Numbered from the stretch's first letter, positions 20,383 to 54,895 are shown. The stretch: DNA of 64,000 nt from an uncultured delta proteobacterium (GCA_963847445.1 CAWJZV010000030.1:544001-608000); one strand, 5' to 3'. The notes: generated from the letters alone by a model not told the origin. Made by a program: numbers and translations.

Positions 20383-20383
20383 C

Positions 20384-31976: not shown

Positions 31977-32475
31977 TTGAAATTTAGACCGGCCGCATTG
32001 TTTAGCCTCGTCGTGCTGATTTTCTTCTGCGTGTTCGTGTATGGAGCCCAAGAGTGGCGCATGCAGGCGCGGCTCTATCCCTTTGCCATCGGCATCCCGA
32101 TGCTGCTCTTCGCCGTCGTCCAATTCATCCTGGATCTCAAAGGGCGTCAAGGCCAAGGAATCTGCGGACGGCGCGCCGATGGATTTTCAATTCTCCGCCC
32201 AGAAGGAAATGGACCCGGCGTTGGTCAAACATCGAACCATCGTCATGTTCTCCTGGCTGTTCGGATTCTTCTTCGCTATTTGGCTCGTCGGTTATCCGAT
32301 CGCGATTCCGCTGTTGGTATTTTGCTATCTCAAATTTCAGTCAGGCGAGTCCTGGAAGCTGACGATTTTTCTGACGGCCATTTCCTGGGTATTTTTCTAT
32401 ACCCTGTTTGTCAGGCTGCTGACTTTACCGTTCCCCGACGGCTGGCTGCTCACCAAGCTTGGATTCTTTGACTAA
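31977..32475 (+). CDS. tctB: tripartite tricarboxylate transporter small membrane subunit (frameshift ~32143)
   Basis: About 4 TM segments, ARLYP, LVGYPIA, C-terminal LFVRLLTLPFPDG. Confidence 0.8.
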
Positions 32476-32586
32476 GCCGAACCATACAAGCCGTAAACTA
32501 GCTGCGCCCAGCGGCACCACCATGCTTGCCTGGGGAATCATAAGCCGTTTCTCCAATCGGCTCCCTGGTTCGGGAGGTTGCCACCG

Positions 32587-33639
32587 ATGATCCACCGACA
32601 ACTCCACGCCACATCGGTTCTGGCTTGCCTGACCCTGAGCCTATGGATTGGCGTCAACGCGCAAGCCCAGGTCGACGGCTTCTACAACGGCAAAACCGTG
32701 CGCATCATCGTCGGCGCAACGCCCGGCGGCTTTTACGATCGTTGGGCGCGGCTGCTGGCGCGTTACATACCCAAGTACATCGCCGGCAACCCCAATTTCG
32801 TCGTGCAAAACATGCCGGGCGCCGGCTCCGTGGTGGCGGCCAACTATGTTTACCACTTGGCCAAACCCGACGGGCTAACGCTAGGCATGCCGCTCAACAG
32901 CCTGCACCTCGACCAGCTCGTCGGCCGGCCAGAAGTAAAGTACGATTTGCGCAAATTTGTCTATATCGGCAGCCAAGAAAAGACCCCAACGATGATGTAC
33001 TTTCGCGCCGACAGCCCGATCAAATCGCTCGACGATATCATTCAAGCCAAGGAACCGCCCAAATGCGGCTCGAGCGGGACGACCAGCACCGCCTATACCG
33101 TGTCGAAGCTGCTCAACGAAGCATTCAAGGCCAAGACCATCAGCATAAGCGGCTACCAGGGGGGCAGCGAGATCGATCTGGCCGTGGAGCGCGGCGAAAT
33201 CGTTTGCCGTCAAATGGACGTGCCGCCGCACTTTGGCCGCGAGCCATTTGATGGTTGGCATAAGCGCGGCTTCGACCGCCATATCTTTCAAGGCGGGCCC
33301 AAGCGCGATGCGCGCTTGGCCGAGGTGCCGACGCTGTTCGAACTGCTGGACCAATACAAGTCGCCGGCGATCATGCGCAGTCTGACCCGGGTGATTCTCG
33401 CCAGCGGCGAAATGGGCCGGCCGATGATGGCGGGGCCGGGAGTACCGGCGGAGCGGATCAAAGCGCTGCGCGATGCTTACGGCAGAGCGATGCGCGATCC
33501 GGCCCTGATCGAGGAAGCGAAGAAGGGCCAGATGGACTTGGAATATACCGCCGGCACAGAGCTTCAAGCACAGATCAACGAAATCATCAGCCAGCCGCGC
33601 GAGGTGATCGAGCTGGTCAAGAAAGTTTTGACGGATTGA
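32587..33639 (+). CDS. tctC: TctC/Bug binding protein, array member 1 (plain leader)
   Basis: FYNGKT, PGGFYDRWAR, QNMPGAGS, KPDGLTL, PPKCG, GYQGGSEIDLAVERGE. Confidence 0.9.
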   Translation: MIHRQLHATSVLACLTLSLWIGVNAQAQVDGFYNGKTVRIIVGATPGGFYDRWARLLARYIPKYIAGNPNFVVQNMPGAGSVVAANYVYHLAKPDGLTLGMPLNSLHLDQLVGRPEVKYDLRKFVYIGSQEKTPTMMYFRADSPIKSLDDIIQAKEPPKCGSSGTTSTAYTVSKLLNEAFKAKTISISGYQGGSEIDLAVERGEIVCRQMDVPPHFGREPFDGWHKRGFDRHIFQGGPKRDARLAEVPTLFELLDQYKSPAIMRSLTRVILASGEMGRPMMAGPGVPAERIKALRDAYGRAMRDPALIEEAKKGQMDLEYTAGTELQAQINEIISQPREVIELVKKVLTD

Positions 33640-33646
33640 GGCGATT

Positions 33647-34740
33647 ATGAAATTCCAATTCACAAACCCGTTCAAAGGTTCAAAGGTTCAAACGTTCAAG
33701 GTTCTCGGACCGCTAGTCCTTTCCGTCGTTGAACTGTTGAACCCTTTGAACCTTGAACCGGCGTTTGCGCAGAGCGCCATTTCTATCAAGACAAGTCCGT
33801 GCGCATCATCGTCGGTTTCACGCCGGGCGGCTTCTATGACCGCTGGGCCAGGTTACTATCGCGCTATATGCCCAAATACATCCCCGGCAACCCCACCTTC
33901 GTCGTGCAAAACATGCCCGGCGCGAGCTCGGTGATCGCCGCCAACTATGTCTATAATTTGAGCAAGGCGGACGGCCTGACGCTGCTGGTGCCGATCAATA
34001 GTCTCTATCTCGATCAAGTGGTTGGCCGGCGTGAAGTAAAGTTCGATGTCAGAAAATTCGAATTCATCGGCACGCAAGAAAAAGCTCCGACCATGCTCTA
34101 CTTCCGTGCCGACAGTCCGTTCAAAACCCTGGGCGACATCATCAACGCCAAGGAACCGCCGAAGTGCGGCTCCACCGGCACGGCGAGCACGGGATACCTG
34201 CTCGCCAGGATCATGGACGAAGCATTCAAGGCCAAAATGACCACCGTCACCGGCTACCAGGGCGGCAGCGAGATCGACATCGCCGTCGAGCGCGGCGAGA
34301 TCGTTTGCCGCGGCATGGACATCCCGCCGCACTTTGGCCGCGAACCGTTCGACGGCTGGCATAAGCGCGGCTTCGACCGGCATATCCTACAGAGCGGCCC
34401 CAAGAAAGATCCGCGCATGGGCGACGCGCCGACACTGTTCGAACTGATGGAGCAATTCAAAACTCCCGAGGTCATGCGCGGTGTCGCACGGGTGATTCTG
34501 GCGAGCGGCGATTTTGGCCGGCCCATGGTCGCCGGCCCCGGCAATCCGCCCGAACGCATCAAAATCATGCGCGCCGCCTATGCCGGCGCGATGCGCGACC
34601 CGGGGCTCATCGAGGAAGCGAAAAAAAGCCAAATGGATATGGAACACACGCCGGGGGAAGAACTCCAGGCGCTGATGAAGGAATTGTTGAATCAACCGCG
34701 TGAAGTGATCGAAAGAGTTAAAAAAGTGTTGTCGGAATGA
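33647..34740 (+). CDS. tctC: TctC member 2 (repeat-encoded leader; frameshift ~33780)
   Basis: PFKGSKVQTFKVLGPLVLSVVELLNPLNLEPAFAQ followed by TctC motifs. Confidence 0.9.
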
Positions 34741-34752
34741 GGTTGCTATGAA

Positions 34753-35854
34753 ATGATCAAACTCAGCAAGACCCGGTTCAAACGTTCAAAAGTTCAAAGC
34801 GTTCAAGCGTAAGCTTCGGATTCAGCTGATTCTTGTTTCTGATCCCTTGAACTTTTGAACCCCTTGAACCTTGAACAGGTATTCGCGCAAGCGAATTTCT
34901 ATCAAGGTAAAACCATCCGCATCATCGTTGGCCTGACGCCGGGCGGCTTCTACGATCGCTGGGCGCGCCTGCTCGCCCGCATTCATGCCGCTTTACATAC
35001 CGGGCAATCCCAGCTTCATCGTGCAAAACATGCCGGGCGCGGGCTCGATGATCGCTATGAATCATGTCTACGGCGTCGCCAAAGCCGACGGGCTGACCCT
35101 CGGCATGCCCAATTACGGCGTCTATCTCGACCAACTGTCAGGGCGTAAAGAAGTCCGTTACGACATCACCAAGATGTACTACATCGGCTCGCCGGAGAAG
35201 AGCGACATCATTCTCTACGCGCGCGCGGACGCCCCATTCAAATCAGTCCAGGACATGAGAAAGCTCGCCGAGCCTGCTAAGTGCGGCGCCACCGGCACCG
35301 CCGGCGCGGACTACCTGATCGCGAAAGTTCTCGAAGACACCCTTGGGGTCAAGATCAATACGGTCGTCGGTTATGCCGGCGGCAGCGAGATCGACATCGC
35401 CGTAGAGAAGGGCGAAGTGCAATGCCGCGGCATGACCATCGCGCCGCACTTCGGCCGCGAGCCGTTCGATAGCTGGCATAAGAAGGGCTTCGATCAGCAT
35501 ATCGTGCAAACCTCGGAGAAGCGCGATGCCCGCGTCGCTGAGGTGCCGACGCTTTACGAAATCTTCGACAAAGAAAACACCGCCGATGAGAGCCGACGGG
35601 TCGCCGATGTGATTTTGCGCGGCGGCGACTTTGGCCGCCCCATGCTGGCTGGTCCCGGCACGCCGCTCGACCGGGTGAATATGCTGCGCGAGGCTTACGT
35701 CAAATCAATGAACAATCCCGAGCTCATCGCCGAGGCGAAGAAAGCTCGTATGGACATGGAGCCGGTCACCGGCGAACAGCTGCAAGCGCTGGCGAACAGA
35801 GTCATGAACCAACCGCCTGCCGTGCTCAAGCGCGTCAGAAAAATCCTTGAATAG
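34753..35854 (+). CDS. tctC: TctC member 3 (repeat-encoded leader; frameshifted)
   Basis: LNPLNLEQVFAQANFYQGKT, PGGFYDRWAR, PAKCG. Confidence 0.88.
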
Positions 35855-35915
35855 ATATTTTGCCAATTGCCAATCATCACCATCGCCGGTCGTCAGCGGC
35901 CGGACGGGAGGACCC

Positions 35916-36958
35916 ATGAAAGCCCTAATCCTGGTGCTCTGTCTCGTTGGCGCGTGGACTTCTCCACCTGCCAGCCCAGACACCCTATTACCAAGGCAAG
36001 CAAATCAAAGTCGTCGTTGGTTTCACCACCGGCGGTTTTTACGATCGCTGGGCGAGACTGCTGTCCCGATATATGCCCAAGCATATCCCGGGCAAGCCCG
36101 AGATGATTGTCCAGAATATGCCCGGCGCCGGCTCGGTCATCGCGGCCAATTTCGTCTATAGCGTCGCCAAAGCGGACGGACTGACCATCGGCTTCCCGAG
36201 CAATGCGCATTTACCTCGATCAATTGATCGGCCGCGGCGAAGTTAAGTACGACGTGCGCAAATTCGCTTGGATCGGCTCCCCGGTCACCGAGCCGATGAT
36301 CTTTTATGTGCGCAGCGACTCGCCGTTCAAAACGATCCAAGACATCAAGAACGCCAAGGAGCCGGCGAAATGCGGTTCCACGGGCACGGTCAGCAGCGAC
36401 TACATCCTGGCGCGACTGCTCGAAGAGACCTTGCCGCCGACCAAGATCAACACGATTTTGGGCTATCCTGGAGGCGCCGAAATCGACTTGGCGGTCGAAA
36501 AAGGTGAAGTCTCTTGCCGCGGTATGACCGCTTCTCCCTTCTTTGGCCGGGAGCCCTTTCTCAGCTGGCAGAAGAAAAACTTTGTCCGCGTGCTCTTCTT
36601 CACCGGCAGCAAACGCGACAAACGGCTTCCCGATGTGCCGACGCTGTACGAGATATTTGACCGGGAAAAGGTTCCCGAAGACCGGCGCCGCATAGCCGAG
36701 GTCATCCTTGCAGCCGAAGAGTTTGGCCGTCCGATCATCGCCGGACCCGGCACTTCAGCCGAGCAAGTCAAAATCCTGCGCCATGCTTTCGATCAATCTT
36801 TAAAGGATCCGGAGTTACTCGCGGATACAATAAAACAGAAAATGGATGTCGATCCCGAGAGCGGCGAGAACCTCGAAAAGCTCGTCGCCAAAACCATGAA
36901 CCAACCCGCCGACGTTATCGCGCGGGTTAAAAAACTTCTCGGGCAATTAGTTGATTAA
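35916..36958 (+). CDS. tctC: TctC member 4 (plain leader; frameshifted)
   Basis: MKALILVLCLVG, YYQGKQ, TGGFYDRWAR, PAKCG. Confidence 0.88.
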
Positions 36959-37012
36959 ACCAATTTCGATGGTAATTTTCGCGTTAGAAAAAAATTAGGA
37001 GGTCAGAACTAG

Positions 37013-38042
37013 ATGTTAAGATTATTAGCAATTTTGTTTTCCTTGATGATCGGCCAGGCGGCCTACGCCCAGACCCCGTTCTATCAAGGAAAAACCATTA
37101 CGATTATAGTCGGCACCAAAGCGGGCGATGCCTATGATTTATATCCGCGCATGCTCGCCGAGTTCATGCCCAAATATATTCCCGGCAATCCCAACATCAT
37201 TATTCAGAACGTTCCTGGGGCGGCGTCGCTGATCGCGGCCAATCAAGTCTACAATATCGCCAAACCGGATGGCCTGACCATCGCGGCCATCTATCCGGCG
37301 CTCTACTTCGAGCAGCTCACGAAAAAACCCCAGGTGAAGTTCGACTGGACCAAGTTCGGCTGGATCGGCAGTCCGGTGAAATCGAACCACATGCTCTACA
37401 TGCGCGCGGACGCCCCGTACAAATCCATGGACGACATCAAAAATGCCAAGACGCCGCCCAAGTGCGGCGCCAGCGGCGTGACTTCCACCGGCAACTATCT
37501 GCCGAAGCTCATGGAAGAGATCCTCGGCACGAAGTTCGAGATCGTTCTTGGGTATCAAGCCGGCCAGGACGTGGATCTTGCCGTGGAGCGCGGTGAGATC
37601 GTGTGCCGGGCGTTCACGATCACCGCATACATGGCGCGCGAGCCGTTCATTTCGTGGCGCAAGCGCGGTTTCGTCAATGAGCTGATGCAAACCGGCGCCA
37701 AACGCGATCCGCGCTTGAAAAATGCGCCGACGATCTACGAGCTCATGGATCGGTACAAAACCGACGCCGCCGGCAGAAGCCTCGGCAAGCTCATCCTGGC
37801 GGCAGGCGAGTTTGGCCGGCCGCTGGTCACTCCCCCAGGGTTCCCCGCTGCTCAGTTCAAGATCCTCCGGGAGGCTTTCGATAAAGCCGTGAGCGATCCT
37901 GCGCTGCTGGCAGCCGCGGAAAAACGTCGTCTGGAAATGGATCCGACGGATGGCGCGGAGATGGAAGCGTTGGCGAAAGAGGTCATGGCCGCAAGCCCTG
38001 AGCGTCGTAAAACGAGTGGAAGATCTTTTGGGCGGAAAATAA
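37013..38042 (+). CDS. tctC: TctC member 5 (plain leader; 3' frameshift)
   Basis: MLRLLAILFSLMIGQAAYA, GTKAGDAYDLYPR, PPKCG. Confidence 0.9.
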
Positions 38043-38130
38043 AACACAGCTCCGGGTACCCCTCAAGGTTGCATCAGAGCGGCCTTGAGGGGTATGCTCC
38101 GGCAAATTTTCGGCGGGAAGGAGAAAATTT

Positions 38131-39159
38131 ATGTTTTCAACTCTCGTTGTATTGGCCACTCTTGTCTGGAGTTCAACTGTATTCGCGCAAACTCCCTTTT
38201 ACCAAGGCAAGACCATCAGCATTGCCGCCGGCACCAAGGCCGGCGATGTCTACGATCTCTATCCGCGTTTGCTCGCCGAGTATATGCCGAAGCATATTCC
38301 TGGCAGTCCCAATATCATCGTGCAAAATATCCCGGGCGCGGCTTCATTGATCGCCGCCAATCAGGTCTATAATACTGCCAAGCCCGATGGTCTGACTCTT
38401 GCGGCGATCTATCCCGCGCTCTATTTCGACCAGCTGATCAAGCGACCGGAAGTAAAATACGATTGGGCTAAATGGCAGTGGCTCGGCAGTCCGGTAAAAT
38501 CGAACCAACTCCTCTACATGCGCGCCGACACACCGTACAAGTCGATGGATGACATCCGCAAGGCGGCCACGGCGCCGAAGTGCGGCTCCACCGGTATCGC
38601 TTCCGCGGGGTACTACATACCCAAGCTGCTGGAGGAAGTGTTGAACGGCAAGATAGACATTGTGTCGGGCTACGTGTCGGGACAGGATATCGATCTGGCG
38701 GTGGAACGCGGCGAGCTCCAGTGCCGGGCCTTCACGATTACCGCCTACTACGCCCGCGAGCCGTTTATCTCTTGGCGCAAACGGAATTTCACCAATGTGC
38801 TGGTACAAACCGGCAGCCAACGCGATGCTCGGATCAAGGAAACGCCGACCATTTACGAGCTGATGGATAAGGCCAAAACCAGTGCGGCCGGACGGACCCT
38901 GGCGAAGGTGATCCTGGCCTCGGGGGATTTGGGACGCCCCATCGTCGCCCCTCCGGGAGTGCCGGCGGATCGGATCAAGATCCTCCGCGATGCCTTCGAT
39001 AAGACGCTCGCCGACCCGGCGTTTCTTGCGGAAGCGGAAAGGCGTCGGCTCGAAATCGATCCGACCAAATGGGATGAAATGGAATCCCTGGCAAAGGAAG
39101 TCATGCTTACGCCCGCCGACGTGGTCGCGCGCATGAAAAAGTTGCTGAGTGACGGCTAA
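38131..39159 (+). CDS. tctC: TctC member 6 (plain leader)
   Basis: Intact 342-aa ORF, GTKAGDVYDLYPR, APKCG. Confidence 0.92.
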   Translation: MFSTLVVLATLVWSSTVFAQTPFYQGKTISIAAGTKAGDVYDLYPRLLAEYMPKHIPGSPNIIVQNIPGAASLIAANQVYNTAKPDGLTLAAIYPALYFDQLIKRPEVKYDWAKWQWLGSPVKSNQLLYMRADTPYKSMDDIRKAATAPKCGSTGIASAGYYIPKLLEEVLNGKIDIVSGYVSGQDIDLAVERGELQCRAFTITAYYAREPFISWRKRNFTNVLVQTGSQRDARIKETPTIYELMDKAKTSAAGRTLAKVILASGDLGRPIVAPPGVPADRIKILRDAFDKTLADPAFLAEAERRRLEIDPTKWDEMESLAKEVMLTPADVVARMKKLLSDG

Positions 39160-39188: not shown

Positions 39189-40253
39189 ATGATCAACCAA
39201 GAGATCAGCGGATCGGTCCTGATCGTGTCGGCTATCGGTCCTGATTGCTCCTCTCGTCTGCTATTCGACCTGCGCTTTACGCCCAAACTCCCTTTTACCA
39301 GGGCAAAACCATCAGGCTCGTCGCCGGCACCCCGGCAGGCAGCGTGTACGATCTCTATGCGCGCATGGTCGCCCAATTTCTCCCCAAGCATATTCCCGGC
39401 AATCCCAATGTCATCGTGCAAAACATGCCGGGGGTCGCCTCCATGGTTGCGGCCAATTACATTTACACCGTCGCCAAACCCGATGGCCTGACCATCGGCT
39501 CGATCCAACCGGCGCTCTATTTCGATCAACTGGTCGGGCGCAAGGAAGTCCAGTTCGACTGGCAAAAATTTACCTGGATCGGCAACACCACGGTGTCGCA
39601 CCATTTGCTCTACATGCGCAGCGACACGCCGTATAAAACCATCGAAGACATCCGCAAGGCCGCCGTGCCGCCCAAATGCGGCGCCGAAGGCACTGCGTCA
39701 TCGGCCTACTACTTCCCCAAGCTCTTGGAAGAAACCATCGGCGCGAAGTTCAACATCGTCACCGGTTACAACTCCGGCACCGATGTCGACCTGGCGGTGG
39801 AGCGCGGCGAAGTGCAGTGCCGCAGCCTTCACCATCGCCGCCTTCTTTGCCCGCGAGCCGTTTCACACCTGGCGCAAAAAAGGCTTTGTCCGGGTAATCG
39901 TGCAAACCGGCAAGAAACGCGATGGCAAAATACCCGATGTACCGACTCTGGAAGAACTCATGGACCAGCATAAGACGTCCGACTCGGCGCGCCGTCTGAG
40001 CGCGGTGATCTTGGCCGCCAATGAGATCGGCCGGCCGATCGTCGGCACTCCCGGGATTCCGGCCGATCGTGTGAAAATTCTCCGCGAAGCTTTCATGAAG
40101 ACAGTGACCGATCCAGAGCTCTTGGATGACGCCAAAAAGAAAAAACTCGACTTGGATCCGGTCTCCGGCGAGGAGCTGGAGAGTCTCGGCAAAGAGATCA
40201 TGGCGCAACCGCCGGACGTCATCGAACGCATGAAAAAACTATTGGGAAGTTAA
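39189..40253 (+). CDS. tctC: TctC member 7 (plain leader; frameshifted)
   Basis: GTPAGSVYDLYAR, PPKCG, AVERGEVQCR. Confidence 0.88.
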
Positions 40254-40289: not shown

Positions 40290-41336
40290 ATGAAAAGACT
40301 CGCATTCGTTCTATTCGTCCTGTCTGTCCTATTCAGTCCGCACGGCTTAACCTGCATGCGCAGACGCCATTCTACCAAGGCAAGACGATCACGATCATCG
40401 TCGCGCGCCAAGGCGGGCGACATCTATGACCTTTACCCACGCCTGGTCGCGGAATTCATGCGGCAGGCATATTCCGGGAAACCCGAACATCATCATTCAA
40501 AACGTCGCCCGGCGCCGCCGGCCTGATCGGCACCAATCAGGTTTACAATATCGCCAAACCTGACGGTCTGACCCTCGGCGCGATCTATCCGGCGCTCTAT
40601 TTCGAGCAGCTCGCCAAACGGCCCGAAGCCAAATTCGACTGGACCAAGTTCATCTGGATCGGCAGCACGGTGAGCTCCAACAGTCACATGTATATGCGCG
40701 CCGATACCCCGTATAAAACCATCGAAGATGTCCGTACCGCAGCGACGCCGCCGAAATGCGGCGCAACGGGCGTAACCTCGTCGGCCTATTACATGCCGAA
40801 ACTCCTCGAAGACGCTATCGGCACCAAGTTCGAGATTGTCTCAGGTTATGTCGCCGGGTCGGATATCGACCTCGCCGTCGAGCGCGGCGAAGTTCAGTGC
40901 CGGGCCTTTACGATCAACGCCTTCTTCTCCCGCGAGCCATTTATCACCTGGCGCAAGAAAAATTTCGTGCGCGTGCTCTATCAGACCGGCAGCAAGCGCG
41001 ATGCACGGCTCAAGGACGTGCCGTTGTTCAGCTGAATTGATGGACAAGTACAAGACGCGCTGAAAGCGTCCGGCGGCTCGCCAAAGTGGTGCTGGCCGCC
41101 GATGAATTCGGCCGTCCGCATCGTCTTCCCTCCAGGCGTGCCCTGCCGACCGGGTAAAGATCATTCGCGATGCTTTCAACAAGACCATCAACGATCCCGC
41201 TCTCTTGGCGGAGGCGGAAAAGCGCCGACTCGACATCGACCCGGCAACGGGTGAAGAACTCGATTCCTTGGCCAAAGAAGTCATGACCGCGACGCCGGAC
41301 ATCGTCGAACGGGTGAAAAAACTGATCGGCATGTAA
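40290..41336 (+). CDS. tctC: TctC member 8 (plain leader; many frameshifts)
   Basis: KAGDIYDLYPR, PPKCG, AVERGEVQCRAFTI. Confidence 0.85.
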
Positions 41337-42463: not shown

Positions 42464-42467
42464 CATT

Positions 42468-43557: not shown

Positions 43558-43561
43558 TAAA

Positions 43562-46021: not shown

Positions 46022-46056
46022 AGAATGGAGTAATGGAATATTACGGTAGTGGAGTG

Positions 46057-47056
46057 ATGGAACCTGACAAGCGGCCCCGCAGACAAAAATGGGCGGGGCG
46101 TCTTACGCTTTGCGCTTTGCTCTTTGCACTTAGCCTCCCCGCCCAGGCGCAGCAGCCGGCAAAGGTGTTTAAGATTGGCTATCTCGATATCGGTAGCTCA
46201 ATGTCCAGATATCAGTCTTTGCGGCGTATCCTCCCTGATCTCGGCTACGTTGAGGGCAGGAACATCTCCTTCGAGTATCGATCGGCTGACAACAAGCTGG
46301 ACCGACTTCCCGCCTTAGCTGAAGAGCTGATCCGTCTCGATGTTGACGTACTCGTCACACGCGGCACACCTGAAGCCCTAGCTCTCAAGAACGCTACCAG
46401 GACAATTCCTATTGTTTTTTACGACGTGACTGATCCTATTGCGGCGGGACTCATTGACAGCCTGGCCCGGCCTGGTGGAAATATCACAGGGTTTACCGGG
46501 TTGGAGGCGGTGTTGGCAGGCAAACGATTGGAGTTACTGAAGGAAACCGTTGCCAAACTCTCCCGCGTCGCGGTGTTATGGAATCCGCAGGATCTAAGCT
46601 CGGCGCAACAATGGAAAGCAATGCAACTGTCGGCACGCGACCTGGGGTTACAACTGCATTCGATGGAAGTCAGCAATCCCGACAAATATGAGAGTGCGTT
46701 CAGAGAAGCAACTAAAGCGCGGAGTGGCGCTCTCGCTGTGATAGCCGGAGGGTTGGAAGACGCGAACAGAAAAAAGATCGCAGAGTTGGCAATAAAGATT
46801 CGGCTGCCAACAATATATCCTCGTCCACATTTTGTCGAAAGCGGCGGACTGATGTCCTACGGACGCGATCCTGAAGATTCTAACAAACGGGTACCAATTA
46901 TGGTCGACAAGATTCTGAAAGGAACCAAGCCTGCTGACATTCCAGTCGAACAGCCGACTAAAGTTCGAGCTGGTGATCAATTTCAAAACCGCCAAGACTC
47001 TCGGCCTGACGATTCCACCGATCGTGCTGATGCGGGCGACCAAGGTGATCAAATGA
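46057..47056 (+). CDS. ABC_sub_bind-type substrate-binding protein (3' frameshift)
   Basis: LCALLFALSLPAQAQQPAKV, SLARPGGNITG, GTKPADIPVEQPTK. Confidence 0.88.
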
Positions 47057-47147
47057 AGAAGGCAGTAGGCATGAGGCAATAGGCAACGGTAAAAAAGAAA
47101 GATAACCGCGATAGTTTGGATCAGCCCCCTTTTATAGGAGCTAAACC

Positions 47148-47720
47148 TCACCGCCAAAGATCAGGGAGCGAAATGGATAGACCAGGGAAAAGCAACGGGG
47201 TAAACGTTTCGGCGTTTTGAGTTTTAATGACGAGCTGGTATTGGTCGCCGGATAGTTCGTAGGCTTCGAGAGTCTGTTGATCGGGGTCGATGAGCCAGTA
47301 GTGAGGCACGTCGTACTTGGCGTAAAGCTGAGCTTTAGTCTGGCGGTCTGCGCGGTGCGTTGTGGGTGATAGGATCTCGATGACGAGACTCGGTGCCCCT
47401 TCGATGGCCCGCTCTGTGACAATGCCGCGGCGGTCGTCGCCAATGAAGATGAGATCGGGCTGCACGACGGTCGTGGGAGCGAGTATCACGTCGGTAGGCG
47501 CCGCGTAAATATCGCCAAGTTGGTTGGCCACAATATGGTTGGCGAGAATCCGATAAAGGTGGCCAGAAATGCTTTGATGTTTTGTGCGCGGCGCAGGCGT
47601 CACGGCAAGTTCTCCATCGAGGATCTCGTAACGGTTACGGTCGTTAGGCAATTCGCAGTAATCGTCGTAGGTCAGAACGATCTTGCCTGGCGGAATGCTT
47701 TGAGTGGAAGTAGACGACAT
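47148..47720 (-). CDS. Uma2-family (DUF820) putative endonuclease
   Basis: LTYDDY, RYEILDGEL, VQPDL, LVIEILSP, YWLIDP. Confidence 0.9.
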   Translation of the reverse strand: MSSTSTQSIPPGKIVLTYDDYCELPNDRNRYEILDGELAVTPAPRTKHQSISGHLYRILANHIVANQLGDIYAAPTDVILAPTTVVQPDLIFIGDDRRGIVTERAIEGAPSLVIEILSPTTHRADRQTKAQLYAKYDVPHYWLIDPDQQTLEAYELSGDQYQLVIKTQNAETFTPLLFPGLSISLPDLWR

Positions 47721-47834: not shown

Positions 47835-48470
47835 GTGATCAAAAAGCTATCCGGAGATCGTGAATTCCTGTCCGACAATCGAAAATCCGTCGTGCTTATC
47901 GCTATCGGTGCCGCATTCGCGTTGTGCGGCGCTCTCGCCGACGCGCAACAACGAACGAAAATCCCCTGGATCGGCTATATGGCTGACGCCGGCTCGTCGC
48001 CCAACCAAGCTTTTCTACAAGGGTTGCGCGATCTCGGCCATTTCGAGGGCAAGAACATCGCATTTGTCTTTCGCACGACGGAGGGAAAACTGAACGGCGC
48101 GCCGAACTTCTCGCCGAGTTTGTACGCTTAAAGGTTGACATCATTTTCGCCGATGGATCGGGCGCGGCGATTGCCGCCAAGAAGGCCACGAGCACGCTTC
48201 CGATTGTAATGACCGGTGCTACCGATGCAGTTGGCATGGGCCTCGTCGCCAGCCTAGCGCGGCCTGGCGGTAACATAACGGGATTGACCAACATCACCGG
48301 AGAGTTGGGTGGAAAACTTTTGGATCTAAGATTCTCAAGGGCGCGAAACCAGCTGACTTCCGGTTGAAGCACCGATGAAATTCAATCTAGAGATTAACTT
48401 ACAAACGGCGAAACAGATTGACCTGACGGTCCCTCAGACAGTGCTGTAGGGCGGATAAGAGTGACCAAGA
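47835..48470 (+). pseudogene. internally deleted ABC_sub_bind remnant
   Basis: QQRTKIPWIGY...SLARPGGNITG, then jumps to a degenerate KIL.GA..ADF.VE.P.KF.L.INL. Confidence 0.75.
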
Positions 48471-48574
48471 AGGCAGCAGACAAAAGGCAAGAGTAAGAAA
48501 TCCCCATTGCACTCAGGCTAGACTTCGCGGTACTCATAGGCGGCGTTATCCGCTTGTTAACCATGAGGTGATTC

Positions 48575-49671
48575 ATGACGCACGGGGAAAAACATCCGTT
48601 CCAAAGTTCAAAGGTTCAAGCGTTCAAGGTTCTCGGATTTCTGGTGTTTTCTGTCGTTGAACTTTTGAACCCTTGGAACCTTGAACCGGCGGCGGCGCAG
48701 ACGCCGCCGTTTCTATCAAGGCAAAACCATCACGTTCATCGTCGGCACCAAGGCTGGCGATGTTTACGATCTCTACCCGCGGCTGTTGGCGGAGTACATG
48801 CCGAAGTATATTCCGGGAAATCCTAACTTCATCATTCAAAACGTCGCCGGCGCGGCGTCGCTGATCGCGGCGAACCAGGTGTACGGCATCGCCAAGCCCG
48901 ACGGGTTGACGCTCGGCGCGATTTATCCGGCGCTTTATTTCGATCAATTGGTGAAACGGCCGGAAGTGAAATACGACTGGAGCAAGTTTGCCTGGATCGG
49001 CAGTCCGGTGGGCTCCAACCACATGATGTACATGCGCAGCGACACGCCCTTCAAGACTATTGACGATGTGCGCGGCGCCGCGACGCCGCCCAAATGCGGC
49101 ACCTCGCGGCACCACGTCGACCGGCTATTATATTCCCAAACTCTTGGAAGAAGCGGTCGGCGCCAAATTCGATATCGTCACCGGTTACCAGGCCGGCCAG
49201 GACGTAGACCTCGCCGTCGAGCGCGGCGAGGTGGTCTGCCGCTCATTCACCATCACGGCGTTTCACGCCCGCGAGCCCTACTTCAGTTGGCGCAAGCGCA
49301 AATTCGTCCACGTGCTCTATCAAACCGGCAACAAGCGCGACGGGCGGTTGAAAGATGTGCCGACCATGTACGAATTGATGGATCGATACAAAACCACCGA
49401 GCCGGTGCGCAAGCTCGCCAAGGTTATTTTAATCGCCAGCGACCTGGGCCGGCCCATCGTCGCCCCGCCGGGCGTGCCGGCCGAGCGCTTGAAAATCATC
49501 CGCGATGCCTTTAACAAGTCGGTGAGCGACCCGGCATTCTTAGCCGAGGCGGAAAAGCGCAGGTTGGAAATCGATCCATCGACTTGGGATGAGCTCGAAC
49601 CCTTGGCCAAGGAAGCCATGGCGACGCCGGCCGATGTGGTTGAACGCATGAAAAAAGTCTTGGGCATGTAA
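48575..49671 (+). CDS. tctC: TctC member 13 (repeat-encoded leader; frameshifted)
   Basis: PFQSSKVQAFKVLGFLVFSVVELLNPWNLEPAAAQ, GTKAGDVYDLYPR. Confidence 0.9.
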
Positions 49672-49697
49672 AGCCATTGAGGTTAAGGAGGTTGTTC

Positions 49698-50796
49698 ATG
49701 AAGTCTGCCGTCAAGCGGCCGTTCAAAGGTTCAAAGGTTCAAACGTTCAACGGTTCTCGGTTTTCTGGTCTTTTCCATCGTTGAACTATTGAACCCTTTG
49801 AACCTTGAACCGGCGGCGGCGCAGACGCCGCCTTTTTATCAAGGCAAGACTATTCGTATCATCGTCGGCAATCTGCCCGGCGATACCCATGACATATTTG
49901 CCCGCGCTTACTCGCGTCACATGGGCAAACATATTCCCGGCTTCCCGAATATCCTGGTGCAGAACATGCCCGGCGCCGGCGGCATGATCGCGGCCAATCA
50001 TGTCTACAACGTTGCCAAGCCGGATGGACTGACGCTCGGTTCGCCGTCGCCGGCGTTGTATTACGCCCAGCTGATCGGCAGCAGCCAAGCCAAATTCGAT
50101 TGGCCCAAATTCAATTTCATCGGCGCGCCGGAGCGCAACGGCCATTTGTTGTTCATGCGCGCGGACTCGCCCTATAAGACGCTCGACGATATCCGCAAAG
50201 CCAAGGAGCCGCCCAAATGCGCCGCCACCGGAGTCGGCACCAGCGGCCACGACGTGCCCAAGCTGTTTGACGAGATGATCGGCTTGAAGTTCAACCTGAT
50301 CACCGGTTATCCCGGCGGCGCGGAGATGGATCTAGCCATCGAACGGGGCGAAGCGATTTGCCGTGCCATCACCATCGCGGCGTTCTTCGCCCGCGAGCCC
50401 TTTCAGAGCTGGTATAAGACCGGTGTCGTGCGCGTCATGTTGCAAACCTCGCGTCAGCGCAACCCAAGAATTCCCGACGTGCCGACGTTGTTCGAGCTGA
50501 TGGAGCAATACAAAACTCCGGAGATCAAGCGCCGCCAGGTGCTGACCTATCTCGGCGTTGGCGGTTTCGGCGCCTGGCCCATCCTCGCGACGCCAGGAAT
50601 CCCGGCGGAGCGCGTGGCGATCCTCCGCGACGGCTTCGGCAAGACCATGAAAGATGCCGACTTCCTCGGCGAGGCGAAAAAAGCCGGTTGGGAAATCCGT
50701 CCGACGAACGGCGAAACCTTGCAGGCACTCGCCAAAGAAGTCATCGAACAACCGCCGGAAGTGGTCGATTGGCTGAAAAAACTACTCAACAAATAA
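49698..50796 (+). CDS. tctC: TctC member 14 (repeat-encoded leader)
   Basis: RPFKGSKVQTF...ELLNPLNLEPAAAQ, GNLPGDTHDIFAR, PPKCA. Confidence 0.9.
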
Positions 50797-50816
50797 CCTG
50801 ACAATGAGAAGTCTCC

Positions 50817-51939
50817 ATGGCACTTCGACTAACGATCGTTCAAGGGCCTTCCGGTTCAGCCGAGTTTACGAAGGCAAAAGTTCAAGGGTTCAATCGGATT
50901 CTTTTCGGATTTCTTGTTCTGACCCTTGAACTTTTGAACCCCTTGAACCTTGAACGGGCGTCTGGCCCAGACGCCCTATTATTTGGGTAAAACCATCCGC
51001 GTCATCGTCGGTTATCAGCCAGGAGACACCCATGATCTATGGGCGCGCATGTACACGCGCTATATGGGCAAGTACTTGCCCGGCAATCCGACCTTTGTGG
51101 TGCAAAACATGCCCGGTGCCGGCGGCATGATCGCCGCCAATCATGTTTTCAATCTGACCAAGCCCGACGGCCTGACGCTTGCCACCGTCGGCGGCGCGCT
51201 TTACTTCAATCAGTTGATCGGCCGTGCGGAAGTTAGATTTGACTGGAACAGGTTCACTTGGATCGGCACGCCGGAGCCCGCCGGCCTGCTGGTCTACATG
51301 CGCACCGACGCGCCGTATAAGACCTTGGACGACCTGCGCCAGACCAACGATCCGCCGAAATGTTCCGCCACCGGCTTGGGCAGCGCCGGTTACGACTTGC
51401 CGCGGCTGCTCGAAGATGTCTTAGGGCTTAAATTCAAAGTCATCAGCGGCTACCCCGGCGGCGCCGACCAGGATCTCGCCATGGAACGGGGCGAAGTCCA
51501 CTGCCGGGCTTTTACCATCGAAGCCTTTTTCGGCCGCGAACCTTATTTCACCTGGGTCAAGAAAAACTTCGTGCGCGTGCTGTTGCAAACCGAACGAAAG
51601 CGCCATCCGAAGTTGCCCGACACACCGACCATCTACGAACTGATGGATCAGTACAAGATTGACGCGGCCAAGCGGCGCATGGCCAGCGTCTATCTCAGCA
51701 GCGGCCGGTTCGGCTCCCGGCCGATCGTGTCGTCGCCGGGGTTATCGGCGGAACGCGCCAAAATGCTGCGCGACGCCTACGCGAAGACCCTCAAAGATCC
51801 CGACTTTCTCGACGAGATCGGCAAACGGAGCTGGAGCGTCGAACCGGTATACGGCGAAGAATTGCAGGCGCTCGCCAAAGAAGTCACCAGCCAGCCGCCG
51901 GAAGTGATCGAGTGGTTAAAAAAATTGTTGTCGAAATAA
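50817..51939 (+). CDS. tctC: TctC member 15 (repeat-encoded leader; frameshifted)
   Basis: cttgaacttttgaaccccttgaaccttgaac leader, GYQPGDTHDLWAR, PPKCS. Confidence 0.9.
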
Positions 51940-51962
51940 TTCGATTCGAAGCGAGGTCGGCC

Positions 51963-53061
51963 ATGGCAAATAAATCGAAACAGCGGTTCAAACGTTCAAC
52001 GGTTCAATCGTTCAACGTTCTCGGACTCCTGATTTTTTCCGTCGTTGAACTTTTGAACCCCTTGAACCTTGAACCGGCGTCGGCGCAGACGCCGCCTTTT
52101 TATCAAGGCAAAACCATTCGCATCATCGTCGGCTACCAGCCGGGCGACAATCACGACCAGTACGCGCGCACCTACGCGCGCTTCATGGGCAAGTATATTC
52201 CCGGCAATCCCACCTTCGTGATTCAGAACATGCCGGGCGCGGGTTCGATGATCGCGGCCAATCATGTCTACAACATGACCAAGCCCGATGGGCTGACGCT
52301 GGGCTCCTTCGGCGGCGCGCTGATTATGGCGCAGCTGACCGGACGCAAAGAAGCGCAGTTCGACTGGCCGAAGTATGGTTGGATCGGTACCCCCTACCGC
52401 GCCGGCCACCTGCTCTTTATGCGTACCGACGCGCCCACCAAGACGGTCGACCAATTGCGCCAGGGGAACGACCCGCCGCGCTGTTCGGCCACCGGCGTCG
52501 GCAGCACCGGCTATGACATTCCCCGGCTGCTCGAGGATGCCCTCGGCATGAAATTCAAGATCATCAGCGGTTATCCTGGCGGCGCCGACCAGGACCTGGC
52601 AATGGAACGCAACGAAGTGAACTGCCGCGCCATCACCATCGACGGCTTCTTCGCCCGCGAGCCGTTCATCTCGTGGGTCAAGAAAGGCTTCGTGCACGTG
52701 CTGCTGCACACGGAAAAACAGCGCCACGCCAAGATCCCCAACGTGCCAACCGTCTTCGAGCTGATGGATCAGTACAAGGTCGCCGAGGCCAAACGCCGCC
52801 TGGTCAACACCTATTTGGGACTCTGGGGCTTCGGCTCCATGCCCATCGTCACCACGCCCGGAGTTGCCCGCCGAGCGGGTCAAGCTGCTGCGCGAAGCGT
52901 ATTTGAAAACCTTTACCGATCCGGAATTTCAGGAAGACATGGTGAAAAGAGGCTGGGAACCGCGCCCGGTGAACGGCGACGAACTCGCCGCTCTCGCCAA
53001 AGACGTCATCAATCAGCCGCCGGAAATCAGCGAAGCAATCAAACGGATACTCAGTCAATGA
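51963..53061 (+). CDS. tctC: TctC member 16 (repeat-encoded leader in frame; 3' frameshift)
   Basis: MANKSKQRFKRSTVQSFNVLGLLIFSVVELLNPLNLEPASAQTPPFYQG, GYQPGDNHDQYAR. Confidence 0.9.
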
Positions 53062-53085
53062 TCGCCTGAAAAAATCATCGACAGG

Positions 53086-53291
53086 CGACTCCGGGACTGC
53101 CGCCGGAGCGGGTGCACTTATTACGCGAAGCGTTCGCCAAGATGTTCAAAGACCCGGAGTTTGTCGCCGAGCTAAAAAACGCAACTGGGAAATGGAACCC
53201 GTCGGCGGTGAAGAGCTACAAAGCCTCGCCGAAGAAGTGGTCAAAGCCGGCCGAGTGTCGCCACGGCGTTGAAACGAATCCTGAGCCAATA
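53086..53291 (+). pseudogene. 3'-end remnant of a tctC gene
   Basis: TPGLPPERVHLLREAFAKMFKDPEFVAEL...LKRILSQ*. Confidence 0.8.
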
Positions 53292-53328
53292 ATCGTAGTC
53301 GCTAAATAAAGTTTTGCGGCTAATTAGG

Positions 53329-53357
53329 TTGACGGGTATCGCTAGATAAGGTAATGA
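53329..53357 (+). promoter_or_regulatory. possible sigma70 promoter upstream of tctA
   Basis: TTGACG...GGTAAT in an AT-rich gap; motif match only. Confidence 0.3.
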
Positions 53358-53395
53358 GCATGAGCCGTTAATCTTAACGACGCCAGGAGAATTTC

Positions 53396-54895
53396 ATGCT
53401 TGACGCTTTTATCAGTGGATTTTGGCAAACCGTCGCGTGGCCGGCCTTCGGCTACATGCTGATCGGTATCGGTATCGGTTTTTTTGTCGGCTTGCTACCC
53501 GGTATCGGCGGACTGTCGACGCTGGCGTTGATGCTGCCTTTCTCCTACTCGATCAAAGAACCGATTTCCGCCTTTGCATTTCTCCTCGGCATGCTGGCGG
53601 TCACCGGCACCACCGGCGATTTAACTTCGATTCTTTTTGGGATCCCCGGGGAGGGGTCCTCAGCCGCCTTGATACTTGACGGCTACCCGATGTCGAAAAA
53701 CGGCGAAGCCGGCCGCGCCCTTGGTGCGGCGATCATGAGCTCCGTGCTTGGCTCCGTGATTGGCGCTCTGTCGCTGGCCCTGTCGATCCCGATCATGCGC
53801 CCGCTGGTCCTGCTCTTCGGCTCGCCGGAATTATTTGTCATCGCGATCATGGGCATCACCTTCATCGGCACCTTGGCCGGCCCATCGTTGATTAAAGGAC
53901 TGCTGGCCGGCGGTATCGGCCTCATGCTCGCCTCCATCGGCGTCGATCCGCAAACCGGCTCGCTGCGCTACACCTTCGGCACGCTCTATTTGTGGGACCG
54001 GCTCGATCTCATCCCGGTGGTCGTCGGCCTGTTCGCCATCCCCGAGATCGTCGATCTCGCTGTCCGCGGCACCAGCATCGCCAGCGGCAAAACGGAAAAG
54101 CTGCACGGCGTCATGGAAGGCGTTAAAGATACCTTTCGCCACTTCTGGTTGGTCGTCCGTTGCAGTTTGATTGGCGTCTACTTCGGCGTCCTGCCGGTGC
54201 TTGGCGCCAACGTCGCCCAGTGGATATCTTACGCTCACGCCGTGCAGGGGTTGAAGGACAAATCCCGGCCGGCAAAGGCGCCATGGAAGGTCTTCTCGGC
54301 CCCGCCGCGGCGAACAATTCGACCCGCGGCGGCGATCTGATCCCAACCATTGCATTCGGCATCCCTGGAAGCGGCGCCATGGCGCTCCTGCTAGGCGCGA
54401 TGTTGATCGTCGGCTTAAACCCCGGCCCGGAGATGCTCAAGTCGCGCCTCGACGTGACCTTCTCAATGGTCTGGGTGCTGATTTTGGCCAACCTCATCGT
54501 CGCCGCCTTGTGCTTCATGATTTTGAACCACTTGGCGGCGCTGACGTTTATCCGCGGCTCGGTATTGATCCCCTTTCTCATGTTCTTGGTGTTTATCGGA
54601 TCGTTCACCGCCAATAACGATCTCGCCGACATCGTCGTCACGTTGCTCTTCGGCGTTCATCGGTTATTGCATGGTCAAGTTCGGCTGGCCGCGCCCGCCG
54701 CTGATATTGGGCCTAACGCTTGGCAAAATCGCCGAGAACTACCTGTGGATCTCCACCGCCGCCTACGGCGCCAAGTGGCTGCTGTTCCCGACCGTGCTCG
54801 GACTGATCGCACTGACGATCTTCACCGTCGCCTACCCGACCATCAAAGAACGGATGGGCAAAGCGAAATACGAACGGCCGGAAGACGCGGTGTAG
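53396..54895 (+). CDS. tctA: tripartite tricarboxylate transporter large membrane subunit (frameshifted)
   Basis: GLLPGIG, SILFGIPG, DGYPMSKNGEAGRAL, GVDPQTGSLRYTFG, AANNS, IPTIAFGIPGS, PPLILG. Confidence 0.92.

Follow-up and report, generated by a model that had tools for sequence, protein, structure and literature searches.

A conserved array of sixteen TctC-family receptor genes between tctB and tctA in an uncultured Binatia bacterium, probably serving a shared TTT permease

Why would a TTT locus carry sixteen receptor genes between the genes for its two membrane subunits, and does such a locus still encode working proteins? This question is raised by a 64,000-nucleotide stretch of DNA (hereafter the window) from a MAG of an uncultured soil bacterium belonging to Binatia. 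The reading that we favour is that the locus is a conserved and functional multi-receptor TTT operon, in which the frameshifts are assembly errors and the receptors feed a shared TctAB permease; we consider this reading probable.

On the plus strand, TctB (31977-32472) is followed by 16 genes of the TctC family, a remnant of the C-terminus of a 17th and, last, TctA (53396-54895), an arrangement proposed by the first-pass annotation and confirmed here by tblastn and Pfam searches. With both one-copy and eight-copy queries, tblastn places TctC-like loci at exactly 16 sites from 32.6 to 53.1 kb, all on the plus strand. The TctB-to-TctA span in the window is 20.9 kb, gaps inside the array are mostly 3-120 nt, and the outer limits originally assigned to the locus (31977..54895) agree with where TctB actually starts and TctA ends.

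Each TTT family is represented. The large membrane subunit (PF01970, model length 423, cut-off 28.9) is matched in two frames at model positions 2-274 (249.1 bits) and 277-406 (116.7 bits); tctA is spread over three frames by breaks near 54300 and 54655, and its orthologue in the relative G012 is an unbroken 499-aa ORF. The small membrane subunit (PF07331, cut-off 29.1) is likewise split between two frames, by a single break at about 32153-32233: frame 32020-32472 matches model positions 71-137 with 33.2 bits, and frame 31962-32468 matches positions 3-50 with 17 bits. TctB proteins of relatives align solely to residues 41-148 of the downstream frame, and an alignment of 37 orthologues locates TctB by TctA-linked arrays in five further genomes. 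For the receptor family (PF03401), 15 of the 16 copies have a piece above the 27-bit gathering cut-off (28.6-65.4 bits), whereas the best piece of copy 13 scores 19.2 bits; the Pfam assignments thus held for TctA, TctB and all receptors except this one.

The flanks of the array are also conserved. Gene 'u' (29892..30839, plus strand), a conserved gene that yields no Pfam, NCBIfam or PDB sequence match, opens the syntenic locus and lies upstream of it in relatives. It is followed by an Amidohydro_2 enzyme of the ACMSD-type decarboxylase group (30870..31952, plus strand; PF04909, 120 bits), also syntenic in relatives. The top matches of this enzyme are titled just 'amidohydrolase', and its nearest specifically named solved chains are ACMSD and the gamma-resorcylate, 5-carboxyvanillate and 2,3-dihydroxybenzoate decarboxylases (E 1e-23 to 1e-14). 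Downstream of TctA lie two split plus-strand genes: an Amidohydro_3 gene (55047..56583), with PF07969 on its N-terminal part in 55047-56231, and a second Amidohydro_2 gene (56908..57923; PF04909 positions 1-122 and 161-289 in two frames), which follows TctA in most related loci and closes the syntenic locus. The part of the Amidohydro_3 gene in frame 55879-56583 has no family match of its own and is presumed, from its overlapping open frame, to be a continuation.

The individual receptor genes, all on the plus strand, are preserved to different extents as printed. Only copies 1 (32587..33639) and 6 (38131..39159), with ordinary signal peptides, and copy 12 (44894..46021), intact from its ATG with a signal peptide encoded by a palindromic module, combine an in-frame ATG, a signal peptide and an unbroken mature domain. 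The mature domain occupies a single frame in eight of the 16 copies, which additionally include copies 2, 10, 11, 14 and 15. In copies 2 (33647..34740), 11 (43561..44643) and 15 (50817..51939) the module (33670-33758 in copy 2, where it encodes the signal peptide, and 43573-43661 in copy 11) is out of frame with the intact mature domain. In copies 10 (42472..43557; module 42483-42571) and 14 (49698..50796; module 49721-49810) module and mature domain share a frame; copy 10 is without an in-frame ATG upstream, and the upstream ATG of copy 14 is out of frame.

The remaining eight mature domains are broken. Frame breaks occur near 35000 in copy 3 (34748..35854; palindromic module 34776-34876), near 36200 in copy 4 (35916..36958; ordinary signal peptide), near 41815 and 42415 in copy 9 (41400..42471; degenerate palindromic module), near 49100 and again where the signal peptide meets the mature domain in copy 13 (48575..49671; module-type signal), and near 52858 in copy 16 (51963..53069), whose ATG and module (51986-52074) are in frame. 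Copy 5 (37013..38040) has an extra base at 38000 and its frame extends to 38347, copy 7 (39245..40253) has an extra base at 39824, and copy 8 (40290..41333) carries seven single-base insertions relative to short-read orthologues, with two stops arising from them. The remnant noted in the first reading proves to be the C-terminal ~60 residues of a 17th TctC (53085..53300, plus strand, in two frames), found by tblastn through its match to residues 253-303 of copy 14 (E 1e-10).

The array is also not uninterrupted: the gene order of the original description stands, but only half of the copies are in one frame and three other genes separate copies 12 and 13. These are an intact PF04392 ABC-type substrate-binding protein gene (46003..47082, plus strand; 146.7 bits), a Uma2-family putative endonuclease gene (47148..47720; PF05685, 131.6 bits) that is the sole minus-strand gene of the array, and a second, broken PF04392 gene (47916..48364, plus strand). 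No ABC permease or ATPase gene lies beside the first of these. Its identity as TrpX is excluded because the TrpX model scores 112 bits against a cut-off of 390. A PF04392 gene is present at the corresponding place in G003, G007 and L018 and absent in G004, G008 and G012, and the 46-48 kb interval has the lowest G+C in the window together with a reversed GC skew (0.528).

The sixteen copies share 40-75% pairwise identity (median 52%), so collapse or duplication of a repeat during assembly does not account for the array, as had been maintained from the outset. They form a divergent subfamily, with Pfam scores of 19-65 bits and no NCBIfam match. PDB sequence matches to copy 10 are all TTT receptors, and the nearest solved chains are 4x9t, TphC (7ndr), a terephthalate-binding protein (8hka), Bug27, AdpC and BugD (E 2.5e-11 to 2e-6). 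In TctC/Bug proteins, a P-F-x-A-G-G-x-x-D loop between beta1 and alpha1 clamps the proximal carboxylate of the ligand via two waters, according to the available text of PMC5812351. This motif is partly kept: the final D is found in 15 of 15 readable copies, copies 1-4 and 9-12 retain G-G, for which copies 5-7 and 13-16 have G-D or G-S, and the leading P-F is substituted in every copy. Five loop classes, (G/A)xTPGGFYD, GTKAGDxYD, GTPAGSVYD, xS(S/A/T)xGGYD and xPGD(T/N)HD, track blocks of the tree. Among 312 aligned columns, 22 are fixed inside orthologue groups and hold at least four residue types across groups, all within the first 260 residues.

Judging from their N-termini, the TctC copies are predicted to be periplasmic proteins bearing export signals. 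Inspection by eye reveals ordinary signal-like N-termini in copies 1, 4, 5, 6 and 8 and module-encoded signals (basic start, hydrophobic core, A-x-A-Q) in 10 copies; in the short-read relatives G012 and G007, the module-encoded signals share a frame with the ATG. Each of these ten copies opens with the conserved ~90-nt palindrome, which folds as a long hairpin (-40 to -50 kcal/mol, z about -5) and has no Rfam family match. Palindromes of this type number 44 genome-wide, about 33 of them non-coding, and the strict module pattern is mostly confined to the array within the genus. REP-type extragenic palindromes, such as that between malE and malF in E. coli, resemble the module in that it forms a long hairpin between successive cistrons and has related hairpins in non-coding DNA elsewhere in the genome. 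However, the array module is translated, as the signal peptide of the gene that follows it. Mobilization of the palindrome in the manner of REP/RAYT elements is not supported, as the four genome matches to PF01797 (Y1-transposase, RAYT-like) do not adjoin any palindrome copy.

Binatia MAGs repeatedly carry this locus type (u, amidohydrolase, TctB, n TctC, TctA, amidohydrolase), with a copy number that varies, and the synteny check proposed at the outset for related MAGs is thereby answered. G004, a sister species of the same genus, matches all 16 copies one to one and in order along a 370-kb contig, which upholds the contiguity of the array, and in the tree each G004 copy pairs, with support, with the equally ranked copy of the window. 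Other relatives hold 10 (G008), seven (G012), seven plus three (G007) and at least seven (G010) copies. In a set of 80 related loci, n ranges from 0 to 7 wherever TctB and TctA are both present, and TctB-to-TctA spans of 10.3-18.6 kb in five more genomes would fit roughly 9-15 genes.

Do these receptors serve the permease that flanks them? All copies may use the one flanking TctAB, and the tight spacing of the genes suggests co-transcription. The array could instead be functional with most of its receptors serving kinase or chemoreceptor sensing, or other TctAB, TRAP or ABC permeases, a possibility that we regard as unlikely. Cross-talk with other partners is possible, since the 7.2-Mb genome encodes 122 TctC-like copies and has about 14 TctA loci. 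In the tree, 34 dispersed genomic copies nest among the array members, which do not form one clade, and the array itself includes the ABC-type binding protein without a permease. Sensing roles and work with other permeases have been proposed for orphan Bug proteins, and the available text of PMC5994714 raises non-transport roles and ties to ABC and TRAP genes for Rhodoplanes receptors. Against this, the copies lie co-oriented and with short gaps between tctB and tctA, Binatia loci with n = 1 up to n = 16 keep this placement, and a Pfam scan of the locus reveals no kinase or chemoreceptor gene.

A three-chain model of TctA, TctB and the adjacent TctC, all from G012, bears on both readings. The complex scores 0.51 versus 0.00 for the best of three controls, contact agreement between its runs is at least 73%, and partner pLDDT is at least 77. 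Of 157 solved complexes, 116 reach the mark for this score, as do 2 of 215 mismatched pairs; just 18 of the 157 and both passing mismatches do so with scores of 0.60 or below. Complex modelling, proposed at the outset for each receptor, was thus carried out for this single trio and graded as weak support, a grade that leaves some room for other partners even as the controls speak for TctAB. Contigs from RNA libraries fall on copies 5, 6, 11, 12, 13 and 14 and on TctA; these are short, of low depth and possibly derived from carried-over DNA.

A second alternative to the shared-permease operon is that the array is a decaying relic, in which an old expansion was followed by real frameshifts that inactivated most copies and the permease in this lineage. 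On the raw sequence, the pseudogenization of most members that the first-pass annotation had regarded as fatal to its proposal is apparently present: as printed, frameshifts affect eight of the 16 mature domains, and there are two breaks in TctA and one in TctB. The split rate is higher within the array (7/16) than among TctC copies outside it (21/106), and the 17th-copy remnant indicates that loss of copies does occur. In its lineage, copy 8 may be a true pseudogene, and its G004 orthologue is broken as well, into four pieces; of the four insertions in that orthologue, three are at sites of their own and one is in a column that the two may share.

However, almost every break is a single-base insertion, nonsense codons are nearly absent, and in-frame stops occur in only one of the 16 copies. 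At least 10 unrelated genes are split along the window, as are 4 of the about 14 TctA loci genome-wide and the 21 TctC copies outside the array. Among related assemblies, the contiguous G004 and G003 are broken at sites other than those of the window, and none of 34 copies is split in the fragmented same-genus assemblies G007, G008, G010 and G012. The inserted bases are missing from short-read contigs of related populations, from three other DNA runs, at both readable sites, 38000 (runs X4 and X6) and 39824 (runs X1 and X6), and full ORFs of 342 aa (copy 5, ending at 38038) and 335 aa (copy 7) are therefore restored. An X6 contig aligns to TctA 53901-54891 with exactly two gaps, and the TctA proteins of relatives continue in a single frame through the 54300 and 54655 sites. 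Of the 12 indels listed, two fall on a frame break and mend it; those at 42558, 43645, 43648, 50939 and 52061 lie in the repeated module and mend no frame (read depth about 30 to over 400 in DNA runs). Because the best of these other DNA runs hold just 0.36-0.41 of sampled words, they represent related populations, and the lesions could be real in the population of the window.

Purifying selection is strong on every copy tested. Values of dN/dS are 0.05-0.15 in 15 orthologous unsplit pairs (one more pair is incomputable, with dS saturated), and those of five split window copies equal them at 0.03-0.12: copy 3 (0.12, versus G004_03), copy 4 (0.03), copy 7 (0.10), copy 13 (0.06) and copy 16 (0.06). 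Single-base consensus errors of the assembly are the most likely source of the frameshifts, which affect tctB, tctA and at least half of the tctC genes, and we consider real decay of the array quite improbable. That the array is an artefact of wrongly joined paralogues from the genome or from several strains is scarcely credible: the MAG has 6.9% contamination and contigs from other metagenomes join non-adjacent copies, but the copies are too divergent to be confused, the identical gene order is found independently in G004, G003, G002, G010 and L018, and the joints fall at the ~90-nt module boundaries, where k-mer contigs are expected to cross-join (a caution that applies under 95% likeness).

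In the shared-permease operon, each receptor would bind a different carboxylate, probably aromatic or other organic, in the periplasm and pass it to the shared TctAB, with uptake driven by protons or ions. The array would have expanded by local tandem duplication in blocks. The TctB/TctA pair is flanked by genes for metal-dependent decarboxylases or hydrolases, and a substrate theme is offered by the flanking Amidohydro_2 enzyme, which is closest to aromatic-acid decarboxylases.

Known systems share parts of this design. The Salmonella TctCBA citrate prototype has the same families (a periplasmic TctC receptor, small TctB and 12-helix TctA) but one receptor gene in the order C-B-A, whereas the window has B-(C)n-A with n = 16 and a divergent receptor subfamily. 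The Comamonas terephthalate system, TpiBA/TphC, likewise pairs a TTT permease with a receptor of the TctC family whose ligand is an aromatic dicarboxylate. TpiBA reportedly serves further receptors, as described by Hosaka and colleagues in 2013. In the accessible portion of PMC8556258, tphC lies in a catabolic operon apart from tpiBA, whereas receptors and permease are together in the window. More generally, a TctC receptor passes its carboxylate to a secondary transporter (PMC5812351, in part).

Large lineage-specific expansions, as in the window genome, are known for Bordetella Bug proteins and Rhodoplanes sp. Z2-YC6860. The latter has 434 TTT binding-protein copies, only nine of which are in full TTT operons, and one nine-gene tandem array; as in the window, members of its arrays are about 50% identical and have their nearest relatives elsewhere in the genome (PMC5994714, available text). 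The premise that TTT receptors are mostly orphans away from tctAB is stated in the accessible parts of PMC8556258 and PMC5994714. Novelty was overstated at first, given this published array, the largest TTT binding-protein array that we found in print within the text available, and given how common the locus type is in Binatia. Our literature search found no published TTT account for Binatia/Binatota, the one match concerning another phylum. Tandem TTT receptor arrays as such are therefore already known. Set against the Rhodoplanes maximum of nine adjacent genes in the available text of that source, what is new here is the presence of 16 receptors inside one tctB...tctA operon, conserved within its genus and in another phylum.

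The order of the array was established from an ORF listing, stop-to-stop frames, a Pfam scan of 47 plus-strand frames, and tblastn searches with the array's own copies, and all of these approaches agree. On the plus strand, tctB (31977-32472; two frames) is followed by 16 co-oriented TctC-family genes between 32.6 and 53.1 kb, by a C-terminal fragment of a seventeenth TctC copy (about 53085-53300; tblastn), and by tctA (53396-54895; three frames). The membrane genes were assigned by Pfam, which finds all three families of the tripartite tricarboxylate transporter (TTT) system in the locus. The 16-copy count, gene order, remnant and end coordinates reported in the first-pass annotation are all correct by Pfam and tblastn. 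The TctC copies share 40-75% protein identity (median 52%), indicating, as had been proposed, that they are true paralogues rather than an assembly repeat. An assembly artefact is rejected on the same evidence and because the order is repeated in the same-genus genome G004. However, the array, although real, had been read too cleanly, in that frame breaks, an interruption and a palindromic module were missed.

The interruption (46003-48364) falls between TctC copies 12 and 13 and carries two PF04392 genes, the first an intact, orphan ABC-type binding-protein gene and the second broken, with a Uma2 endonuclease-like gene on the minus strand between them. Its G+C content of 0.528 is the window minimum, and its GC skew is reversed. 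This insertion is also found in the relatives G003 and G007 and at a further related locus (L018), and is missing at the same place in G004, G008 and G012. Gaps between the array cistrons are mostly 3-120 nt, which fits co-transcription of the array. A scan for sigma-70-like promoters yielded no enrichment (8 found versus 8.9 +/- 3.3 expected). Terminator-like sites numbered 43 versus 26.3 +/- 5.3 expected, but several of these are a small GC hairpin plus T-run over the codons for A-x-A-Q-T-P-F-Y-Q, such that the excess may be explained by coding constraint. Short contigs from an RNA run (X20) lie over several TctC copies and TctA, and these are not taken as proof of transcription. Separately, a further GC-rich inverted repeat lies in the 427-nt gap (44644-45070) that separates copies 11 and 12, and contig depth in the DNA runs reaches 57-323 in the bin 44238-44904 versus single or low double digits in most bins, suggesting a second dispersed repeat family.

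As printed in the assembly, the mature domain lies in a single frame in 8/16 TctC copies (1, 2, 6, 10, 11, 12, 14 and 15), and a frame that stays open from ATG via the signal peptide to the stop is limited to copies 1, 6 and 12. The reading of TctA is split over three frames and that of TctB over two. Such breaks are found well outside the array. A window-wide Pfam scan reveals at least ten unrelated genes split across frames (for example 5823-6993, 13018-14014, 16805-18725, 18768-21346, 21361-22352, 28305-29436 and 62265-63177), among them genes for nitronate monooxygenase, a luciferase-like oxidoreductase, a hybrid kinase, an AMP-binding enzyme, enoyl-CoA hydratases, acyl-CoA dehydrogenases, Amidohydro_2 and EamA. 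Genome-wide, 28 of 122 TctC-like copies are split (7/16 in the array and 21/106 elsewhere), as are 4 of about 14 TctA loci; rpoB is unbroken. The genome (a MAG of 7.19 Mb in 48 contigs, with completeness 91.8% and contamination 6.9%) appears to be an assembly with roughly one single-base indel per 2-4 kb, most of them G or C insertions at sites that are not homopolymers. Coverage by long ORFs per 20 kb was dropped as a proxy for frameshift density because it was not discriminating, with the array region falling mid-range.

Wholesale pseudogenisation of the array would also produce broken frames, but it is rejected on comparison with relatives and on substitution rates. G004 (10 contigs) has the full set of 16 copies in identical order, the broken ones being 8, 9, 10 and 12, and its breaks in TctA lie at positions that differ from those of the window. 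G003 (40 contigs) has its own set of breaks. In the fragmented assemblies G008, G012, G007 and G010, none of 34 TctC copies is split, and the TctA frame continues across both break sites of the window. Furthermore, dN/dS is 0.03-0.12 in five split copies and 0.05-0.15 across 15 unsplit pairs (one further pair is saturated), and purifying selection therefore acts alike on split and unsplit copies.

Contigs from three DNA runs of three studies, 90-99% like the window, were aligned to 34900-54899, and parts with thin or zero cover in single runs were kept out of evidence. Among the 12 indels listed, two match mature-domain breaks. The base at 38000 is missing in contigs of runs X4 and X6, and its removal gives an ORF of 342 aa; the base at 39824 is missing in contigs of runs X1 and X6, and its removal gives an ORF of 335 aa. 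A single contig across TctA (53901-54891) carries exactly two gaps. The indels at 42558, 43645, 43648, 50939 and 52061 were considered as mends for copies 10, 11, 15 and 16, and none restores the frame; removing the base at 52061 disrupts an open frame. Since these positions lie inside the repeated module, where DNA-run depth ranges from about 30 to more than 400, they are attributed to cross-mapping from other copies of the module.

Taken together, the splits in unrelated genes, the differing sites in relatives, the run contigs and the dN/dS values point to erroneous base insertions in the consensus of highly contiguous assemblies from this genus. The best-matching runs contain only 0.36-0.41 of sampled words, and some breaks may therefore be strain-specific lesions in this population, and copy 8 may be a real pseudogene. 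Copy 8 carries seven single-base insertions relative to its short-read orthologues, and its counterpart in G004 carries four, three at other columns and one at a possibly shared column; most of these insertions lie outside homopolymers. Insertion errors of this kind carry a practical warning, in that they make intact operons in highly contiguous MAGs of the genus look pseudogenised.

The locus recurs among relatives. Near-identical TctA loci occur under record titles such as 'Candidatus Binatia bacterium' and 'uncultured delta proteobacterium', and a syntenic locus is present in same-genus genomes. Among the 80 loci listed, the recurring type comprises an unknown gene, Amidohydro_2, TctB, n TctC, TctA and Amidohydro_2, where n is 0, 1, 2, 3, 5, 6 or 7 when both ends are visible. 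For five genomes, a 10-kb flank was too short to include both ends, and their TctB-to-TctA spans of 10.3, 11.8, 15.9, 16.9 and 18.6 kb, compared with 20.9 kb in the window, correspond to roughly 9 to 15 TctC genes. A short-read assembly is among these five, and every TctC copy visible in it is a full-length match. The total for the genome containing the window is 122 TctC-like copies and about 14 TctA loci, a Bug-like expansion that includes other TTT loci where several TctC genes adjoin TctA genes (C7:292357-303304 and C24:51563-71720). In four further related genomes (G021, G023, G024 and G025), several TctB homologues (for example G025:C14:14306-14761) lie within open frames of about 555-1064 aa, mostly near 700, possibly as TctB-TctA fusion proteins.

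The history of the array was examined with a FastTree tree of 155 TctC sequences, which took in every copy of this genome (122) together with the arrays of G004, G008 and G012, the pieces of split copies being joined by X at the breaks. Each copy in the window has its counterpart of equal rank in G004 as sister (support 97-100 for most, 82 for copy 8). Neighbouring copies form blocks (1-2; 9-12; 14-16; and 5, 6, 8 and 13 with 7 nearby), with copies 3 and 4 standing apart, and the 7-copy array of G012 and the 10-copy array of G008 hold one member for each block or sub-block. The array is not monophyletic, as 34 dispersed copies nest within its span. These patterns suggest an old core of several distinct receptors that was locally duplicated before the two 16-copy lineages diverged and has been retained since.

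Ten of the 16 copies (2, 3, 9 and 10-16, with copy 9 degenerate) carry upstream of the mature domain a module of ~90 nt composed of three or four GTTCAAAG-type repeats, a conserved ~25-nt loop and inverted repeats. Copies of the module lie at 33670-33758, 34776-34876, 42483-42571, 43573-43661, 49721-49810 and 51986-52074, with looser ones ahead of copies 9, 12, 13 and 15. Folding energies are -39.6 and -50.1 kcal/mol (z -4.9 and -5.4). Translated in frame, the module has a basic start, a hydrophobic core and A-x-A-Q, and it is the predicted signal peptide of the downstream receptor; in the short-read assemblies G012 and G007 it is in frame with both the ATG and the mature domain. Its conservation at the DNA level is far above that of the genes it heads, which are paralogues about 50% identical in protein. 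Across the genome, 10/122 TctC copies are module carriers, 9 of these in the array, and 7/5000 random 190-nt windows have the same property. The module is uncoupled from mature-domain phylogeny, because signal type is not shared within the sister pairs 1/2 and 6/13.

Under a looser definition, 44 such palindromes occur genome-wide, about 33 of them non-coding. The non-coding look-alikes sit between unrelated genes in a REP-like manner (for example C14:276160 and C41:98578), and one lies in the window at 1057-1136, between two minus-strand genes. The strict pattern is found in 7/12 same-genus genomes (6/11 without genome G005) and in 0/8 genomes from other families of the order, and a reversed control pattern does not occur in the genomes searched. 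No Rfam family was detected in 31500-55500 at E up to 0.1. A link to RAYT was rejected, as no Y1-transposase gene was found adjoining any such palindrome in this genome. Contigs from other metagenomes link non-adjacent copies at module borders (e.g. 43663 to 51993, 48709 to 41502 and 42462 to 44689), and these joints may come from recombination or copy-number variants, or may be only k-mer assembly cross-joins.

The DNA-level conservation, the uncoupling from phylogeny, the near-confinement to the array, the non-coding look-alikes and the border joints together allow a speculative reading, which we consider rather unlikely, that the module, with its four repeats and four inverted repeats around a 25-nt loop, is a semi-autonomous cassette with three roles. 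It would provide the downstream receptor with its signal peptide; it would place an mRNA hairpin of -40 to -50 kcal/mol at each cistron boundary that could govern how stable, or how well translated, each cistron is; and its near-identical tracts would let the array gain, lose and reshuffle copies by homology. If true, a repeat element would have been turned into an export signal while driving a variable receptor array. Apart from this reading, the putative palindrome-encoded signal peptides are the least expected element of the locus.

The solved chains closest to copy 10 are TTT receptors, including the terephthalate-binding TphC/TBP, Bug27, AdpC and BugD. The available text of a review on this family gives its carboxylate-clamping loop motif as P-F-x-A-G-G-x-x-D (PMC5812351), which is partly retained in the array copies in five versions that match the tree blocks. 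Of 312 aligned columns, 22 are invariant across species inside each orthologue group and show at least four residue types between groups; all lie within the first 260 residues, and two are in the clamping loop, a distribution that fits diversified ligand pockets. NCBIfam assigns no family to the three Tct proteins, to the Amidohydro_2 genes or to the unknown upstream gene, which also has no PDB match. The upstream Amidohydro_2 protein is closest to non-oxidative aromatic-acid decarboxylases, and the wider window is rich in genes for CoA-transferase, hydratase and acyl-CoA dehydrogenase, which suggests that the substrates are organic, perhaps aromatic, acids. Elsewhere in the window, an 863-aa open frame at 3236-5824 (minus strand) contains two CoA-transferase family III stretches and represents either a tandem fusion or a pair of genes run together by an indel.

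Modelling of the complex, proposed as a check in the first-pass annotation, was run for the intact TctA and TctB of G012 with the adjacent mature TctC, each supplied as an alignment. The score was 0.51 versus 0.00 for the best of three controls, a mark reached by 116/157 solved complexes and 2/215 mismatches, although passing scores of 0.60 or under came from only 18 of the 157 solved complexes and from both passing mismatches. At least 73% of contacts agree between runs, and partner pLDDT is at least 77. To our knowledge, there is no structure of a TTT complex, and the pass is therefore unlikely to reproduce a known one. The model lends weak support to docking of TctC on TctAB. The broader proposal of many receptors feeding one TctAB is plausible and partly supported.

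A search of openly available full-text articles found no description of TTT systems, or of such a Bug-like expansion, in Binatia or Binatota. In the available text on Rhodoplanes, the largest TTT receptor array has nine genes, termed remarkable, and no more than 9/434 receptor genes are in full TTT operons (PMC5994714), whereas 16 TctC genes lie inside one tctB...tctA operon here. The array is a new, larger and operon-embedded form of a known phenomenon rather than a novel type of system.

Ever since the Bordetella Bug proteins were found, it has been asked if a single TctAB permease could work with many TctC receptors, and the idea that many receptors are possibly served by one membrane component is restated in the text available from PMC5994714. 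According to the portions available, most TTT receptors are encoded away from membrane genes (PMC8556258) and those of organisms studied so far are scattered orphans (PMC5994714, PMC8556258), an arrangement in which the question is difficult to approach. In this locus, the operon itself names the partners, with up to 16 diverged receptors between two membrane genes. Related genomes offer natural variants with 0, 1, 2, 3, 5, 6, 7, 10 and 16 receptors, which make up a defined panel for reconstitution in a heterologous host and for ligand screens, and the locus gives a view of diverse organic acid uptake by soil Binatia.
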